DNA of 29,151 nt from an uncultured archaeon. GTDB taxonomy: Archaea; Iainarchaeota; Iainarchaeia; Iainarchaeales; 0-14-0-20-30-16. Within the stretch, counting starts at the first letter, position 1, and the number at the start of each line of letters is the position of its first letter. The stretch spans positions 1 through 29,151 of the forward strand of contig CAYZSS010000009.1 in assembly GCA_964480435.1 (NCBI GenBank). The letters run 5' to 3'. Below the pieces are notes generated by a model. It ran no database searches. It saw only the letters and a list, made by a program, of their open reading frames with translations, and was not told the origin of the DNA. Both the position numbers and the translations under genes were made by a program. Below, piece by piece: positions 1-28,117 of the stretch.

Positions 1-1467
1 AATGGAACTCCTTCAACATCAAAAGCTTATTTTGTTCTTAATAATGGAGAAGCTAATAGGGGGCAGTTCTTAAAGATAAAAACAAAAAAAGGCTATTTTT
101 TGTGTTTTGTTAATGATATTTTTAGAAGCAATCCTTATTTTGAGAACGCAATGCAGGTAAATGAGAATACTTCTGATGCATTTCCTGTGGAAGACTGGCA
201 TAATACTATTGTTGAGTTAAAAGTTCTTGGTTTTTTAAAAAATGAAAAAATTTGTAGAGTTTCATTTCCACCCTATCCTGGGGAGAATGTAACCTTACCC
301 ACAAAAAATGAACTGGAATTATTCCTTGGTTTAGTGGAAAATGGGTTAGAATTAGGGGGTATAGAGAACACGGATGCTATAGTAAAAGTGGATACTTCAA
401 AATTATTGCAAAAACATTTGGCAATTTTGGCAATGTCGGGTGCAGGGAAATCTTACTTGGTTTCTGTGCTTCTGGAAGAAATTCTTGATAATTCAAAACT
501 AGGAATTGTTTTATTTGATGTGCACGGGGAATATAGGCATTTTGCAAAACCAGCATCTAAAGAATACACAGACTATTCATCTAAAACAAAAGTAATTGAT
601 TGTTCTAAGTTTAGGCTTTCTATTGACTCAGTAAATATTATTAGTAAATTAATTCCTGATTTAAGTGATGTACAAAAAAGGGCATTGCTAAAAATAATTT
701 CTGATTTGAAAAGTGAAGTTAAAGATAATGGGCTTTTTACTATTGAAAATATCATTGAAAGAGTTGATGAAGAAGACTCTTTGAAAAGAGCAACAGCAGC
801 AAGAGATTCTCTAATTGCAAAATTGAGACATATAGACTCTATGGGACTTTTTGGAAAGACCAATACATTAGATAATGATTTAGTTGTTCCTGGTAAATTG
901 ACTATTCTTGACCTATCTAATGTTTTGGATATGCAAAGAAAACAGATAATTGTATCATATATTTCAGAATTTTTGTTTAATTCTAGACTTAAAGGAACAG
1001 TTTCACCTTTTCTTATTGTTTTGGAAGAGGCGCACCAATTTATTCCTGAAAAAGCCGCATCGGATTATGCAATCGCTCGGAGTATATTTGAAACAATTGC
1101 AAGAGAGGGGCGAAAGTTTGGGTCAGCTTTGTGTTTAGTTTCACAGAGACCAATAAATTTGTCAACTACTGTTCTAAGTCAATGTAACACACACATATTT
1201 CTTAGAATTATAAATCCAAATGATTTAAAGCATATATCTGAATCTTCTGAAGGTTTAGATTATAAAAATATGGAGTTTATCACCGGCTTAAAAGTTGGAG
1301 AAGCATTAATGGTTGGTTCAGCAGTAAAATATCCATTATTTTTTAAAGTAAGAGAAAAGAAAAGCCAACCACAGGAATATGATCTAACTTTGGAAGATAT
1401 GGCAACTTCTTTTGTTAAAAATAAAGATAAAAAAGATAAAGATTTAGATTTATATCTAGGATTATAA
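1..1467 (+). CDS. herA: HerA-like hexameric ATPase (DUF87 / FtsK-HerA superfamily), 5'-partial
   Basis: Frame 1 is open from nt 1 (NGTPSTSKAYFVLNNGEANRGQFLKIKTKKGYF precedes the track's TTG at 100), so the gene runs off the left edge. It has Walker A AMSGAGKS, Walker B LIVLEEAH and the AREGRKFG..LVSQRP..LSQCNTHIFLRI block typical of HerA. Confidence 0.85.
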   Translation, partial: NGTPSTSKAYFVLNNGEANRGQFLKIKTKKGYFLCFVNDIFRSNPYFENAMQVNENTSDAFPVEDWHNTIVELKVLGFLKNEKICRVSFPPYPGENVTLPTKNELELFLGLVENGLELGGIENTDAIVKVDTSKLLQKHLAILAMSGAGKSYLVSVLLEEILDNSKLGIVLFDVHGEYRHFAKPASKEYTDYSSKTKVIDCSKFRLSIDSVNIISKLIPDLSDVQKRALLKIISDLKSEVKDNGLFTIENIIERVDEEDSLKRATAARDSLIAKLRHIDSMGLFGKTNTLDNDLVVPGKLTILDLSNVLDMQRKQIIVSYISEFLFNSRLKGTVSPFLIVLEEAHQFIPEKAASDYAIARSIFETIAREGRKFGSALCLVSQRPINLSTTVLSQCNTHIFLRIINPNDLKHISESSEGLDYKNMEFITGLKVGEALMVGSAVKYPLFFKVREKKSQPQEYDLTLEDMATSFVKNKDKKDKDLDLYLGL

Positions 1468-13223: not shown

Positions 13224-13262
13224 AATTGAGTCCTTTCTTTTTAAAAAATAAAAAGAAGATAG

Positions 13263-13336
13263 TGGGAATGCCCGGATTTGAACCGGGGACCTTCCGATTA
13301 TCAGTCGGATGCTCCACCAGACTAAGCTACACTCCC
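13263..13336 (-). tRNA. tRNA-Ile (anticodon GAU), no intron, no encoded CCA
   Basis: I folded the cloverleaf by hand. The acceptor stem is GGGAGTG/CATTCCC (one G-U) and the D stem is GCTT/GAGC. The anticodon stem is TCCGA/TCGGA with loop CTGATAA. The T arm is CCCGG-TTCAAAT-CCGGG and the discriminator is A. Confidence 0.9.
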
Positions 13337-13431: not shown

Positions 13432-13475
13432 TGTAAGTTGCCCAAAAGAAAGGCATTTCGCTAGTTTTTTATAAG
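13432..13475 (-). repeat. tRNA-associated conserved motif, copy 1 (5' flank of tRNA-Ile)
   Basis: On the plus strand, tgtaagttgcccaaaagaaaggcatttcgc at 13432-13461 matches 27517-27547 with 3 substitutions and 1 indel. A ttataa box follows in both copies. Confidence 0.6.
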
Positions 13476-15168: not shown

Positions 15169-15228
15169 TTATTATCACCAACATATAGATTGTTTTACTT
15201 GTTTAAATTACTTTGTTTATTATTGTTG

Positions 15229-15373
15229 TTTTTCATAAATTAAATAGAGATTTAATCTTTTCTTTTGTTTGTTTTAATTTGCATTTTTTTTAAATTAGAA
15301 AAAGGGGAAAAGCATATATATTATTTGTTTGTAGAGTATATGTCTTTTATGGTAAGGAGGGGTATTATGAAAA
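15229..15373 (+). promoter_or_regulatory. Duplicated promoter/5'UTR cassette, copy 1
   Basis: Nt 15229-15362 are identical base-for-base to 17635-17768 (134 nt). A 1-nt G indel follows, then 11 more identical nt that include the ATG. The cassette contains A/T-rich TATA-like boxes (ttttttttaaatta, catatatatta) and an AAGGAGG Shine-Dalgarno sequence. Confidence 0.8.
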
Positions 15374-17590: not shown

Positions 17591-17634
17591 TATTTTTTAA
17601 TATTTTAAATTAAATAAATAGACTATTATTTGTT

Positions 17635-17780
17635 TTTTTCATAAATTAAATAGAGATTTAATCTTTTCTTTTGTTTGTTTTAATTTGCATTTTTTTTAAA
17701 TTAGAAAAAGGGGAAAAGCATATATATTATTTGTTTGTAGAGTATATGTCTTTTATGGTAAGGAGGGGGTATTATGAAAA
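17635..17780 (+). promoter_or_regulatory. Duplicated promoter/5'UTR cassette, copy 2
   Basis: See copy 1. This copy precedes an unrelated lipoprotein gene. Confidence 0.8.
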
Positions 17781-18289
17781 CTATTTTGCCTATTGTAATT
17801 GCAATGCTTGCGGTTATGGTTGTTTTAAGTGGCTGTGTTGGAAGTCAGGTGGCCCCGGGCACAAAAATTGATTCTAAAGATTCTTTTATGAGTGCATTAA
17901 ACTCAGGTATAGAGTTAAAATGTGCTGTTGATATTAACGGGATGGCTGCAACAGTTTATTTTACAAAAGATAAATATATGGCAATAGCAAATACTCCGCA
18001 ACAAGAAAAAGTTTATACTATTATTGATCTTACAGAAAAAATGATATATATTTGGTCAGATATAGATGTATTTACTCCTGAACAATTAGATGCAATGCAG
18101 ATTACTGCTGAACCAGGAAAAAAGATTGGTGCAAAAATGTCTGTAGCAGAACAGCCTTCTGAAGAGCTAACTGCTGATGATTATGAACCAGATTGGATTT
18201 GTGAAACAAGTGTAGAACCAATAGTAGTCCCAAGTGGCTATCAATTTATTGATATGACTGGTATGATGTCTGCACAAGGAACTAACTAA
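17774..18289 (+). CDS. Small lipoprotein, paralog A1
   Basis: The signal peptide and lipobox are MLAVMVVLSGC. By manual alignment, 152 of 171 residues are identical to the ORF at 25958-26473. Confidence 0.75.
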   Translation: MKTILPIVIAMLAVMVVLSGCVGSQVAPGTKIDSKDSFMSALNSGIELKCAVDINGMAATVYFTKDKYMAIANTPQQEKVYTIIDLTEKMIYIWSDIDVFTPEQLDAMQITAEPGKKIGAKMSVAEQPSEELTADDYEPDWICETSVEPIVVPSGYQFIDMTGMMSAQGTN

Positions 18290-18290
18290 A

Positions 18291-18313
18291 AAGGTTAAAT
18301 TAACCTTTTTTTT
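18291..18313 (+). terminator. Hairpin plus T-run after paralog A1
   Basis: aaggttaa-a-ttaacctt forms a perfect 8-bp stem and is followed directly by a T-run. Confidence 0.5.
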
Positions 18314-18359
18314 ATTCTTTTCTTTTATAATCTAACCCGATTTGTTGTGTTGGATTTGG

Positions 18360-25819: not shown

Positions 25820-25957
25820 ATAAATACCTTCTTTTTAAAGTCAACTTTGAAAATAATGTTTATAACTATTTATACCTTTCTTTTTTGCCTGACTCAAAAA
25901 AAGATATGTTTATATCTAGAATATTCTTAACTGTATATGACTTTTTGAGGTGATTAT

Positions 25958-26473
25958 ATGAAAGCTATTTTGCCGATTGTAATTGCAATGCTTGCAGTTA
26001 TGGTTGTTTTAAGTGGTTGTGTTGGTAGCCAGGTGGCACCAGGCACAAAAATAGATTCTAAAGATTCTTTTATTGCAGCAGTTAATTCTGGTGTGGAATT
26101 AAAATGCCTGGTTGATATTAATGGAATGGCGGCAACAGTTTATTTTACTAAAGATAAATACCTTGCGGTAGCAAGCACAACACAAGCAGAAAAGGTTTAT
26201 ACTATTATTGATCTTACTGAAAAAATGATATATATTTGGTCAGATATAGATGTATTTACTCCTGAACAATTGGTGGCAATGCAGATTACTGCTGAACCAG
26301 GTAAGAAAATAGGTGCCAAAATGTCTGTAGCAGAACAGCCTTCTGAAGAAATAACTGCTGACGATTATAAACCAGAATGGATTTGTGAAACTAGTGTAGA
26401 GCCAATTGTGGCACCAAGCGGTTATCAGTTTATTGATATGACTGATTTGATGTCTGGACAAGGAACTAACTAA
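25958..26473 (+). CDS. Small lipoprotein, paralog A2
   Basis: It has the same signal peptide and lipobox as A1, and 19 of 171 residues differ. Its upstream region is unrelated to the A1 cassette. Confidence 0.75.
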   Translation: MKAILPIVIAMLAVMVVLSGCVGSQVAPGTKIDSKDSFIAAVNSGVELKCLVDINGMAATVYFTKDKYLAVASTTQAEKVYTIIDLTEKMIYIWSDIDVFTPEQLVAMQITAEPGKKIGAKMSVAEQPSEEITADDYKPEWICETSVEPIVAPSGYQFIDMTDLMSGQGTN

Positions 26474-26619
26474 AAAGGTAATCTCTGCCTTTTTCTTTTT
26501 TTCTTTTATAACTCTTTGTAATAAAATAAGATTAAATTTTTAATAAAAATAAAAAGAACTGTTTGTGAAACAAGATAGCATAAGTTTAGTTTATATTTGT
26601 TTTTCTTTAGATTATAACT

Positions 26620-27444
26620 ATGGCTATAAAAGTTATTACAATTAATTCAGAAACTGCTGATTTTAAATTTGCTGAATCTTTAAAAAATAATCGGCAAAAA
26701 AGATCAAAAAGTCAACTTTTTTTTGTAGAAGGCGTTAACTCAATTAATTTATTAATTGAAAATAATTGGAGTATTGATACTCTTATTTATTCAACAGAAA
26801 AAAAACAATCTGACTGGGCAAAAAATATAATTAAAAAAACAGGTGCAAAAACTCATTTGGATATGAAATATAACTTGCTTAAAAAATTAAGTGATAAAGA
26901 GGAAACTTCTGAGATTATTGCTTTAGTAAGTATGCCTAAAGATGATTTGCCAAAAATTAAAATTAAGAAAAATCCTCTTATTGTAATCCTTGATAGACCT
27001 GCAAGTCCTGGAAATTTAGGCACAATAATTAGGTCTTGCAATAGTTTTTTAGTAGATGGCATAATTATCACTGGCCATGCAACGGATTTGTATGATCCAA
27101 AAACAATACTTGCTAGTGTGGGATCTATTTTTTCAATTCCAATTGTTAGGCTAGAATCACATAATAAAATAAAAATTTGGTTGGACAAATTAAAAATAAC
27201 ATTTTCTGACTTACAAATAATTGGAACTTCTGCAAAAGCAAAGAACTTTATAAATAATTATGATTTAACAAAGCCTACTGTTCTGCTTGTAGGTAATGAG
27301 ACTAATGGGCTAAGTTTTAATTACAAAAATATGTGTGATTCTTTATTAAAAATACCTTTGTTTGGATCTGCATCATCTTTAAATGTGGGTTGTGCAACAG
27401 CTATATTTTTGTATGAAATTAATAATCAAAGAAAAAAAAAGTAA
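26620..27444 (+). CDS. SpoU/TrmH-family RNA 2'-O-methyltransferase
   Basis: SPOUT motifs are LDRPASPGNLGTIIRSC, LLVGNETNGLS and IPLFGSASSLNVGCATAIFLYE. There is an N-terminal substrate-binding-like domain. Confidence 0.8.
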   Translation: MAIKVITINSETADFKFAESLKNNRQKRSKSQLFFVEGVNSINLLIENNWSIDTLIYSTEKKQSDWAKNIIKKTGAKTHLDMKYNLLKKLSDKEETSEIIALVSMPKDDLPKIKIKKNPLIVILDRPASPGNLGTIIRSCNSFLVDGIIITGHATDLYDPKTILASVGSIFSIPIVRLESHNKIKIWLDKLKITFSDLQIIGTSAKAKNFINNYDLTKPTVLLVGNETNGLSFNYKNMCDSLLKIPLFGSASSLNVGCATAIFLYEINNQRKKK

Positions 27445-27485
27445 AAGAATCCCGCCTCCCGGACTTGAACCGGGGATCTTTCGGT

Positions 27486-27743
27486 TACTGCCCTTTTTCT
27501 TTCGCGAAAGAAAAAGTGTAAGCTGCCCAAAAAGAAAGGCGCTTCGCGTAATTATAACCTTTTTGCTTTTACGTTCTAAGTTCATCAATTGTAAACAAAG
27601 TGCCTTTATGGCACAATTTTTCTTTTGGTGAACCAAGAAGCTTTTTGCTTTAAAGGCAAAAAGTTTCAGGGCCTTAAGAACTTTTCTTTTGAAAAGTTTC
27701 TTATTGCTTATGCTTTTCTTTTTTTTAAAAAGAAAAGAATCGT
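27486..27743 (-). other. tRNA-Tyr intron (258 nt, hairpin-rich)
   Basis: Loop nt C32-U35 can pair with intron GCAG (plus strand 27488-27491). That leaves 3-nt bulges AG|A and UA|A, giving a BHB central helix. There is a perfect 24-nt palindrome at 27493-27516 and several other A/U-rich hairpins. Confidence 0.7.
27517..27558 (-). repeat. tRNA-associated conserved motif, copy 2 (inside the tRNA-Tyr intron)
   Basis: On the plus strand, tgtaagctgcccaaaaagaaaggcgcttcgc is followed by a ttataac box. It matches 13432-13475. Confidence 0.6.
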
Positions 27744-27886
27744 CTACAGCCGAACGCATTAGCCACTATGCTAAGGCGGGATACCTTATTTTTTGTTTTA
27801 CGCTTTTTCAAAATAGAAAAAGTGTTACTCGATTATTATTCTAATTGTTGTAAATCTTTATAAATCGTTCCCTGCTAAAGTCTAAT

Positions 27887-28117
27887 TAGTAGTAGGTGGC
27901 CAGCTCCCGTAAGGAGGAAGGTCCGCCCATCCATTATGTGAGAAGAATCCAGAAATGGGTAGCAAAACTAACAGAAATAAACCACCGTAAGCTTACTGTG
28001 ATAGAAAATTGAGGTGCTTGTGGTCAGGATGAAAAATAGTTCTGCTTCACGGATGCAAGCATATGCGCTCAGATTAATGCTGGCTGAAAACAGAAGGCGG
28101 CCTATAGCCTACTGCTA
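27887..28117 (+). ncRNA. rnpB: RNase P RNA (archaeal, size-reduced, about 231 nt)
   Basis: The CR-I-like sequence is GGAGGAAGGTCCGCCC and the CR-V-like sequence is AACAGAAGGCGGCCTAT. A 10-bp P1 helix forms between 27887-27896 and 28108-28117 (one G-U). P2 is GGCC/GGCC and a short P3 hairpin is CTCC-cgtaa-GGAG. A TATA-like tttataaa lies at 27857-27864 and a T-run follows at 28121. Confidence 0.8.

Follow-up and report, generated by a model that had tools for sequence, protein, structure and literature searches.

A tRNA-Tyr gene with a 258-nt, hairpin-rich intron in an uncultured archaeon

Introns between positions 37 and 38 of archaeal tRNA genes, including the tRNA-Tyr genes of Euryarchaeota, are spliced by the endonuclease EndA at a motif termed bulge-helix-bulge (BHB), composed of a 4-bp helix and two 3-nt bulges, with the anticodon stem serving as the outer helix. 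A review from 2014 gives the length range of archaeal tRNA introns as 11-129 nt (PMC4090602). Here we describe a tRNA-Tyr(GUA) gene on the minus strand of a 29,151-nt stretch of DNA from an uncultured archaeon (contig CAYZSS010000009.1, positions 1-29,151; this whole stretch is referred to as the window). The intron of this gene follows the described introns in its site, its tRNA, the 4-bp helix, the two 3-nt bulges and the use of the anticodon stem as the outer helix. It differs from them in its length of 258 nt, about twice that of the longest archaeal tRNA intron in the 2014 review, in the presence of about seven hairpins instead of one, and in an inner helix that consists of a single pair.

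Degeneration of one flanking helix, as seen in the window, is also found in the relaxed BHB or bulge-helix-loop (BHL) introns, which are associated with (alpha-beta)2 and epsilon2 EndAs and with the L3-loop EndAs of DPANN archaea. Relaxed motifs need EndAs of broad specificity; the DPANN enzymes carry specificity-broadening inserts, including an inserted loop that has been connected with disrupted tRNA genes, and the tRNA sets of DPANN archaea are often incomplete (PMC5829648). The host of the window likewise belongs to DPANN. Most of the described relaxed introns are non-canonical in their site or lack a bulge, whereas the intron in the window retains both 3-nt bulges and the canonical site.

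Three further systems share some properties with the locus. The tRNA-Trp intron of Haloferax and other Euryarchaeota (about 65-105 nt), which contains a box C/D RNA and is circular and stable after excision, also owes its unusual length to additional structured sequence. Unlike it, the intron in the window has no C/D arrangement or Rfam snoRNA match above the threshold, and its interior lacks conservation among relatives. The 191-nt tRNA-Tyr intron of locus L008 (CAZEGI010000002.1, 3232-3497, minus strand; Altiarchaeales-like tRNA body) interrupts the same tRNA at the same site, folds into a string of hairpins (z = -6.6) and lies far above the normal length. Its sequence is, however, unrelated to that of the window, has 50% G+C and visible repeats, and the introns of its own relatives L059 and L118 are only 37-40 nt long. 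With the split tRNAs of Nanoarchaeum equitans and Caldivirga the locus has in common a break after position 37, RNA pairing, cutting by EndA, which is predicted here, and a DPANN context, but the halves in the window are contiguous, lie 258 nt apart and probably belong to one transcription unit.

The tRNA-Tyr gene and its splice motif

The initial annotation of the window had proposed a complete tRNA-Tyr(GUA) on the minus strand with a 258-nt insert exactly at 37/38, and this structure was confirmed at 27780-27450. The exons, the intron and the elements of the splice motif are the following.

27780-27744, minus strand: 5' exon of tRNA-Tyr(GUA), nt 1-37 (37 nt, CCCGCCTTAGCATAGTGGCTAATGCGTTCGGCTGTAG), with the 5' strand of the acceptor, the D arm, the 5' strand of the anticodon stem and C32-G37; located by ARAGORN with introns allowed and by sequence reading
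27743-27486, minus strand: intron, 258 nt, ACGATTC...GGGCAGTA; located by ARAGORN with introns allowed and by alignment to relatives
27485-27450, minus strand: 3' exon of tRNA-Tyr, nt 38-73 (36 nt, ACCGAAAGATCCCCGGTTCAAGTCCGGGAGGCGGGA), with A38, the 3' strand of the anticodon stem, the variable loop AGATC, the T arm, the 3' strand of the acceptor and discriminator A
27746-27749, minus strand: 5' strand of the central splice helix, C32 U33 G34 U35, paired with GCAG at 27488-27491
27488-27491, minus strand: 3' strand of the central splice helix, GCAG, intron positions 253-256
27743-27745, minus strand: 5' bulge, A36 G37 and A(+1), predicted cut after G37
27485-27487, minus strand: 3' bulge, U(-2) A(-1) and A38, predicted cut before A38

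Removal of the intron yields a canonical 73-nt cloverleaf, which ARAGORN identifies as Tyr(GTA) and which has C1-G72 and A73. The latter combination constitutes the tyrosine identity set of Archaea and Eukarya. The predicted junction of the spliced exons reads GGCUGUAG/ACCGAAAG, its 3' side beginning with ACCGAA. The gene at 27780-27450 is missed both by ARAGORN with default settings and by the Rfam tRNA model. With introns allowed, ARAGORN places it at c[27449,27781] with the 258-nt intron slid by 2 nt, and calls it Asn(GTT); the slide is permitted by the UA at the end of the intron. We rejected the asparagine identity on account of the bulge geometry, the presence of C1-G72 together with A73, and the unambiguous tyrosine calls in related genomes.

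The same gene, with an intron at the same site, was found in four other organisms by means of the 5'-exon pattern, which retrieved three further metagenome contigs, and of homologues of the neighbouring PCC-domain protein. The introns of the relatives measure 238 nt (L126, identical to L129 and L130), 151 nt (L127), 104 nt (L128) and 71 nt (L134), which makes five distinct introns for the comparison of homologues. All four genes are called Tyr(gta) by ARAGORN without ambiguity, the intron is placed after position 37 in each of them, and the exons are identical to those of the window or differ from them at no more than six positions. The Rfam tRNA model detects the gene of L134 (339-482, 71-nt intron) at 52 bits; genes with introns of at least 104 nt (L128, L127, L126 and the window) are seen neither by this model nor by default ARAGORN. 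Long-intron tRNA genes can thus be lost from routine annotation, with a spurious protein called in their place, which may explain some of the tRNAs reported as missing from DPANN archaea (PMC5829648).

The window has a G+C content of 30%. It contains an archaeal RNase P RNA (Rfam, 109.5 bits) at 27888-28116, on the opposite strand and 107 nt from tRNA-Tyr, and the best named homologues of its PheRS alpha subunit come from Candidatus Diapherotrites and Woesearchaeota (about 45-50% identity); these two genes point to a DPANN archaeal host. Four further assemblies spanning the intron (ENA, JGI and two from Logan), which represent different samples and pipelines, are 100% identical across the locus, and a fifth identical contig stops within the intron. 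We hold with high confidence that the gene and its intron are correctly identified.

The splice motif was likewise found as initially read: C32-U35 (CUGU) forms a helix with GCAG of the intron, two 3-nt bulges flank it, and the inner helix amounts to a single C:G pair. The bulge geometry was read off the sequence, and the cleavage positions are those expected from the BHB-motif rule. C(+2):G(-7) makes up the whole inner helix; the next position, +3:-8, is G.G. The locus displays the 37/38 site, the 4-bp helix with opposed 3-nt bulges, the outer helix and the archaeal host that define BHB introns. The strict hBHBh' form, in which two or more base pairs follow the 5' bulge as an inner helix, is absent, only one pair being present. 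The motif is a relaxed BHB, a BHL-like variant, rather than a strict one, given the single pair of the inner helix and the 12-bp hairpin that abuts it. Our own scan of the intron for nested BHB motifs recovered the canonical site but was not informative, as a sequence of such low, A/U-dominated complexity gives 48 matches, against about 14 in shuffles.

To assess conservation of the motif, nine related tRNA-Tyr genes were aligned over their exons and the intron bases next to the splice sites. Of the cells that make up the cloverleaf, the 4-bp helix and the inner pair, 99.6% are paired, and five pairs are changed on both sides; in a control with the 3' partners slid by 1-3 columns at most 51% of cells are paired. 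The anticodon stem that provides the outer helix (5 bp) is 100% paired, with two pairs changed on both sides. The 4-bp splice helix is paired in 97% of cells, the partner strand being GCAG, AUAG or GCGG, and the inner +2:-7 pair is C:G in the window, L126 and L127 and U:A in the six other sequences. Such conservation of the cloverleaf and the splice motif indicates purifying selection on both the tRNA and the motif, and constitutes a strong argument against a pseudogene.

A candidate promoter lies between the gene and the RNase P RNA.

27857-27864: TATA-like box, palindromic (TTTATAAA), at a distance of 76 nt from the 5' end of tRNA-Tyr and of 24 nt from RNase P RNA, upstream of both

The motif ATTTATAAA(G)A also occurs upstream of tRNA-Tyr in L126 and L127. 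Judged from its sequence, the TTTATAAA box is a probable promoter element, and its position suggests that it is shared as a divergent promoter of RNase P RNA and tRNA-Tyr. The RNase P RNA, a short one (about 229 nt), adjoins tRNA-Tyr in four lineages, in three different relative orientations.

27888-28116, plus strand, window: RNase P RNA
1851-2077, L129: RNase P RNA
46-274, L127: RNase P RNA
560-789, L134: RNase P RNA

Length, fold and turnover of the intron

A background set of 120 archaeal tRNA-Tyr loci, mostly euryarchaeal, was assembled with a pattern covering the T arm and the acceptor; 112 of the genes are complete. All but one of these (111/112) have an intron, about 12-58 nt in length with the exception of L008. 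An intron in tRNA-Tyr is therefore ordinary as such, and it is the size that stands out here. The unusual length noted at the outset is borne out by both the background set and the range of the 2014 review (PMC4090602), and the intron roughly doubles the upper reported length of archaeal tRNA introns. A search of viral contigs for the pattern of the same lineage gave 0 matches.

As a separate observation, the tRNA-Tyr introns of genomes of ANME-1/Methanosarcinales type (L006, L013, L020, L048, L049, L068, L070, L079, L084 and L115) contain GATCACCTCC or GACCACCTCC, which appears to match the conserved 3' end of 16S rRNA (the anti-Shine-Dalgarno region).

The minimum free energy of the intron alone is -69 kcal/mol (z = -5.4 against shuffles). 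Constraining the fold to the cloverleaf and the BHB motif gives -103.1 kcal/mol against a free minimum of -104.0, a cost of less than 1 kcal/mol. The constrained fold has about seven consecutive stem-loops, hairpins A-E and two more, arranged in one multiloop, with the splice helix closing it. The window has 22 perfect hairpins with a stem of at least 8 bp; four of them fall into the 258-nt intron, against an expectation of about 0.16 (Poisson P = 2.4e-5). The stem sequences are mostly variants of CUUUU(U/C)... / ...AAAAG. All of the hairpins initially named are present: the 24-nt palindrome at 27493-27516, those at 27641-27663 and 27713-27737, and GUGCC/GGCAC at about 27600-27614. Strong folding is seen in most of the long introns, with z between -4.5 and -6.6 in the window, L127, L128 and L008 and -4.35 in L126, against -0.2 in L134 (71 nt). 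The hairpins of the intron and its 5' flank are listed in the order of transcription.

27803-27826, minus strand: 5'-flank hairpin, CACUUUUUCU AUUUU GAAAAAGCG, resembling hairpin E (ACACTTTTTCT match); not present in the shorter flank of L126
27713-27737 (intron 7-31), minus strand: hairpin A, CUUUUCUUUUU AAA AAAAAGAAAAG, perfect 11 bp, the first after the 5' splice site
27675-27703 (intron 41-69), minus strand: hairpin B, UAAGAA.CUUUUC AAAA GAAAAG UUCUUA; L126 is without it
27641-27663 (intron 81-103), minus strand: hairpin C, CUUUUUGC CUUUAAA GCAAAAAG
27574-27639 (intron 105-170), minus strand: hairpin D, long and irregular, with the apex GUGCC AUAAA GGCAC; contains conserved block 2, GUUCACCAAAAGAAAAA
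27517-27547 (intron 197-227), minus strand: block 3 / hairpin G, GCGAAGCGCCUUUCUUUUUGGGCAGCUUACA; 27 nt are 100% identical in L126
27493-27516 (intron 228-251), minus strand: hairpin E, perfect 24-nt palindrome CUUUUUCUUUCG/CGAAAGAAAAAG

In each of the five related introns a hairpin starts no more than about 8 nt from the 5' splice site; hairpin A is 94% identical to its L126 counterpart. Hairpin E is 100% identical in L126, ends one base before the splice helix and abuts C(+2):G(-7) with its stem; its place is taken in L127 by a different hairpin, CUUUCUUUUUU/AAAAAGAAAG.

The interior of the intron undergoes rapid turnover. The global identity of the intron to those of L126, L127, L128 and L134 is 61%, 44%, 35% and 23%, respectively. 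The RNase P RNAs of the window, L126, L127 and L134 are about 79-83% identical to one another, with 89% between L127 and L134, the introns of which (151 vs 71 nt) are 33% identical. The alignment of the window and L126 introns is a mosaic, in which blocks 2-35, 111-127, 197-223 and 229-256 show 94-100% identity and the rest is unalignable. Hairpins B and C, between hairpin A and block 2, are found only in the window, and L126 has two extra hairpins of its own between block 3 and hairpin E. The block-2 hairpin carries the GUGCC/GGCAC hairpin in its loop, whereas its counterpart in L126 is a simple GUUCACC/GGUGGAC stem-loop; the base of hairpin D, GGUUCA.CAA / UUG.UGAACU, corresponds to the latter. 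A module of about 50 nt resembling hairpin C occurs at a different position in L126 and aligns with a score of 41 as the reverse complement against 30 in the direct orientation, which is weakly suggestive of insertion or shuffling. The 3'-terminal hairpin of the L127 intron resembles the 5'-terminal one of L126, and the spacers between RNase P RNA and tRNA-Tyr in L127 and L134 are filled with hairpins of the CCUUUUUAAGAAAAAGG type.

The L008 intron contains three copies of the unit AGCAACCGGAAGA, which includes the 3' splice junction, at a spacing of 43-49 nt. This intron has grown by local duplication, and the repeat creates a second potential 3' splice motif in its interior. We also looked for the intron modules as dispersed repeats: the window yielded two weak extra copies, one upstream of tRNA-Ile and one in the tRNA-Tyr 5' flank, and the other related loci none, so that a genome-wide family of mobile elements is unsupported. 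The series of 71, 104, 151, 238 and 258 nt provides a natural data set on the growth of archaeal introns, with which one could ask whether growth precedes the splitting of genes.

A repeat at the 5' end of the tRNA gene was noticed in L127 (580-690). The leader and the first 14 nt of tRNA-Tyr form a 27-nt direct repeat, AACTAAGGCATCCCGCCTTAGCATA, with a second copy 87 nt upstream of the real gene and about 60 nt of unrelated sequence in between, and this arrangement looks like the scar of an insertion or duplication.

Explanations for the long intron

The structure of the gene, the conservation of the cloverleaf and the splice helix, the series of intron lengths, the hairpin architecture and the rapid turnover are all shown here. 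They are probably explained by a working tRNA-Tyr(GUA) gene with a relaxed BHB intron, which is spliced by the EndA and ligase of the host and has been lengthened by lineage-specific accretion and shuffling of hairpin modules. The anticodon stem, the 4-bp helix of C32-U35 with GCAG and the two opposed 3-nt bulges would constitute the recognition motif of EndA, with the 12-bp hairpin E probably stacked on the single inner pair in place of the missing inner helix. The EndA cuts would fall behind G37 and in front of A38, whereupon a ligase of RtcB type would join the exons and make a circle of the intron, the usual outcome in archaea; the junction of the circle, if formed, would read ...GGGCAGUA/ACGAUUC.... 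As for the mode of growth, we infer that A/U-rich CUUUU...AAAAG stem-loop modules may have accumulated in the removable parts of the pre-tRNA, the intron and the 5' flank. Insertion, duplication and shuffling of such modules would have extended an intron of roughly 70 nt to 104, 151, 238 and 258 nt in different relatives. It would follow that the bulk of the intron is tolerated, fast-evolving structured filler, and that only the elements proximal to the splice sites are widely constrained. The reported specificity of EndAs, the loop of the DPANN enzymes and the incomplete tRNA sets of DPANN archaea fit this explanation (PMC5829648). An inner helix of one pair that closes a multiloop of seven hairpins and is maintained by selection would widen the known range of substrates of archaeal splicing endonucleases.

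Several observations weigh against this explanation. The inner helix of the strict motif is reduced to 1 bp, so that cleavage depends on the type of EndA in the host, and neither an EndA gene nor an RtcB gene was found in the 29-kb window. Four T5 runs are present in the intron; in Archaea, runs of T could cause premature termination. The match of the hairpin C module in reverse orientation is weak owing to the small difference between the scores and the low complexity of the sequence. The notion of filler leaves unexplained the four blocks (106 nt) that are near-invariant in the comparison with L126, two of them internal. One of the internal blocks, block 3, has a paralogue, GCGAAATGCCTTTCTTTTGGGCAACTTACA (intron copy GCGAAGCGCCTTTCTTTTTGGGCAGCTTACA), at 13432-13462 on the minus strand, close to tRNA-Ile at 13262-13336. 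Finally, the view is limited to the 29-kb window, and a second copy of tRNA-Tyr might exist elsewhere.

Such a second copy is what would be expected if the gene were a pseudogene disrupted by an inserted element, with the functional tRNA-Tyr located elsewhere. The failure of standard tRNA finders to detect the gene and the repeat-like, hairpin-rich character of the insert are compatible with a disrupted pseudogene. We nevertheless regard it as very improbable: the insert lies exactly at 37/38, where an intron is ancestral for archaeal tRNA-Tyr (111/112 genes), its boundaries show no target-site duplication or terminal inverted repeats, the splice helix and the bulges are intact, and pairing in the exon stems is kept at 100%, with compensatory changes, among lineages that share only 71-77% identity in neighbouring genes. 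An origin as an assembly artefact or a chimera, conceivable for low-complexity sequence of metagenomic source, has next to no probability in view of the four other spanning assemblies from different samples and pipelines, in which the insert is identical, and of the homologous long introns in separate organisms. The size of about 250 nt and the position in the anticodon loop resemble those of the group I introns of bacterial tRNAs. Group I introns have been described in archaea (PMC6125680). A self-splicing group I or II intron is, however, hardly credible here, as the corresponding Rfam models give no match even at E = 10, the insert, a string of simple A/U stem-loops, lacks a conserved catalytic core, its size differs between close relatives, from 71 up to 258 nt, and the BHB helix is conserved at the exact endonuclease geometry. 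The initial annotation had alternatively considered the locus an intermediate on the way to a split gene, the halves of which would become separate transcription units as in Nanoarchaeum. DPANN includes the classic organism with split tRNAs (PMC5829648), the T-runs of the long intron could end a transcript of the 5' half, and its A/T-rich stretches could in principle turn into a promoter. The halves are nonetheless contiguous on one strand in all five lineages, the entire gene lies downstream of the one conserved TATA-like box, no TTTATAAA-type box is seen within the intron by sequence reading (no dedicated scan for internal promoters was made), and the terminal hairpins and the splice helix suit splicing in cis. 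A step towards splitting is thus a very unlikely account of the locus, and the suggestion was not upheld.

The alternative with the most remaining weight holds that the intron or its conserved blocks represent a functional RNA that splicing would set free, probably in the form of a stable circle, with a possible role as a protein-binding scaffold or as a cis-element common to the leaders and introns of pre-tRNAs. The four blocks are 94-100% identical to L126, against 83% for RNase P RNA and 77% for the neighbouring protein gene, and the chance of an identical run of 27 nt at 80% identity is about 0.002. Block 3 forms an 8-bp hairpin with a U-rich loop, and its paralogue about 100 nt upstream of tRNA-Ile, with a 1-nt deletion and one compensatory change in the stem, is not seen upstream of tRNA-Ile in L127 or L128. 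The strong predicted fold (z = -5.4) is in line with a structured product. Archaeal tRNA introns circularise after excision, and the tRNA-Trp intron with its C/D guide RNA offers a precedent (PMC4090602). On the other hand, L127, L128 and L134, at about the same distance as L126, do not have the blocks, and these are common to just two sequences and identical between them, so that covariation is not assessable. Rfam searches of the intron, at the gathering score and at E values up to 10, returned chance-level matches only, with no snoRNA, no group I/II intron and no family at threshold (the best, PyrR, reached 31 bits, its cut-off being 54). In none of the introns does a C box precede a D box: in the window a near-C box at intron position 156 lies downstream of the sole CUGA (75), L126, L127 and L008 have no C box, and the single UGAUGA is buried in a helix. 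Blocks 2 and 3, unlike the terminal blocks, go beyond what splicing would constrain, and this keeps a functional RNA alive as a minority possibility, one that we consider unlikely on balance. The stable structured non-coding RNA proposed at the outset thus fares unevenly: the near-invariance of the blocks with respect to L126 speaks for it, and the lack of conservation of the interior beyond L126, the spread of lengths from 71 to 258 nt and the lack of an Rfam match or C/D arrangement speak against it.

A slightly less probable, more specific version would have the excised intron persist as a circular multi-hairpin RNA of about 258 nt that is more than filler. Hairpin A, block 2, block 3 and hairpin E might then act as sites or cis-elements for a lineage-specific factor of pre-tRNA processing or RNA binding. 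If true, DPANN archaea would have a new class of structured RNA that derives from introns, with the block-3 hairpin reused upstream of tRNA-Ile. A reading as an H/ACA RNA, judged by eye, was dropped; the sole ACA follows a 5-bp hairpin.

The intron does not appear to code for a protein. The initial statement that it has no credible open reading frame (ORF) stands with a correction, as a 126-aa ORF (27379-27759, minus strand) crosses it. This ORF starts in the D arm, reads through the intron and the T arm, and is lysine-rich and of low complexity; it is called as a gene in the JGI and Logan annotations of identical contigs. Both the 126-aa ORF and an 82-aa ORF over the intron were rejected, neither being conserved in L126, where the longer one is broken. 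The 126-aa ORF is almost certainly spurious.

Other features of the window

The 3' end of tRNA-Tyr is approached from the plus strand by a protein-coding gene.

26620-27444, plus strand: SpoU/TrmH methyltransferase, ending 5 nt from the 3' end of tRNA-Tyr

The nearest homologues of this protein are at most 62% identical to it, and most of those with a name come from bacteria (Patescibacteria, Chloroflexota), which suggests horizontal acquisition. A search for shared synteny through the methylase led mostly to bacterial homologues, and the two relatives examined have no tRNA-Tyr next to the gene. In L138 a tRNA-Arg(CCT) gene with a 64-nt intron (1111-1248, minus strand) adjoins a SpoU homologue of 61% identity.

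Further repeats and a putative toxin-antitoxin pair occur elsewhere in the window.

17773-18333 and 25957-26515: paralogous 171-aa ORFs without a Pfam match, 86% identical at the DNA level
15218-15373 and about 17624-17780: upstream segment of 158 nt, repeated at 98% identity
19859-20513, minus strand: pair of a PemK toxin and an RHH antitoxin, adjoining a TrmB-family regulator

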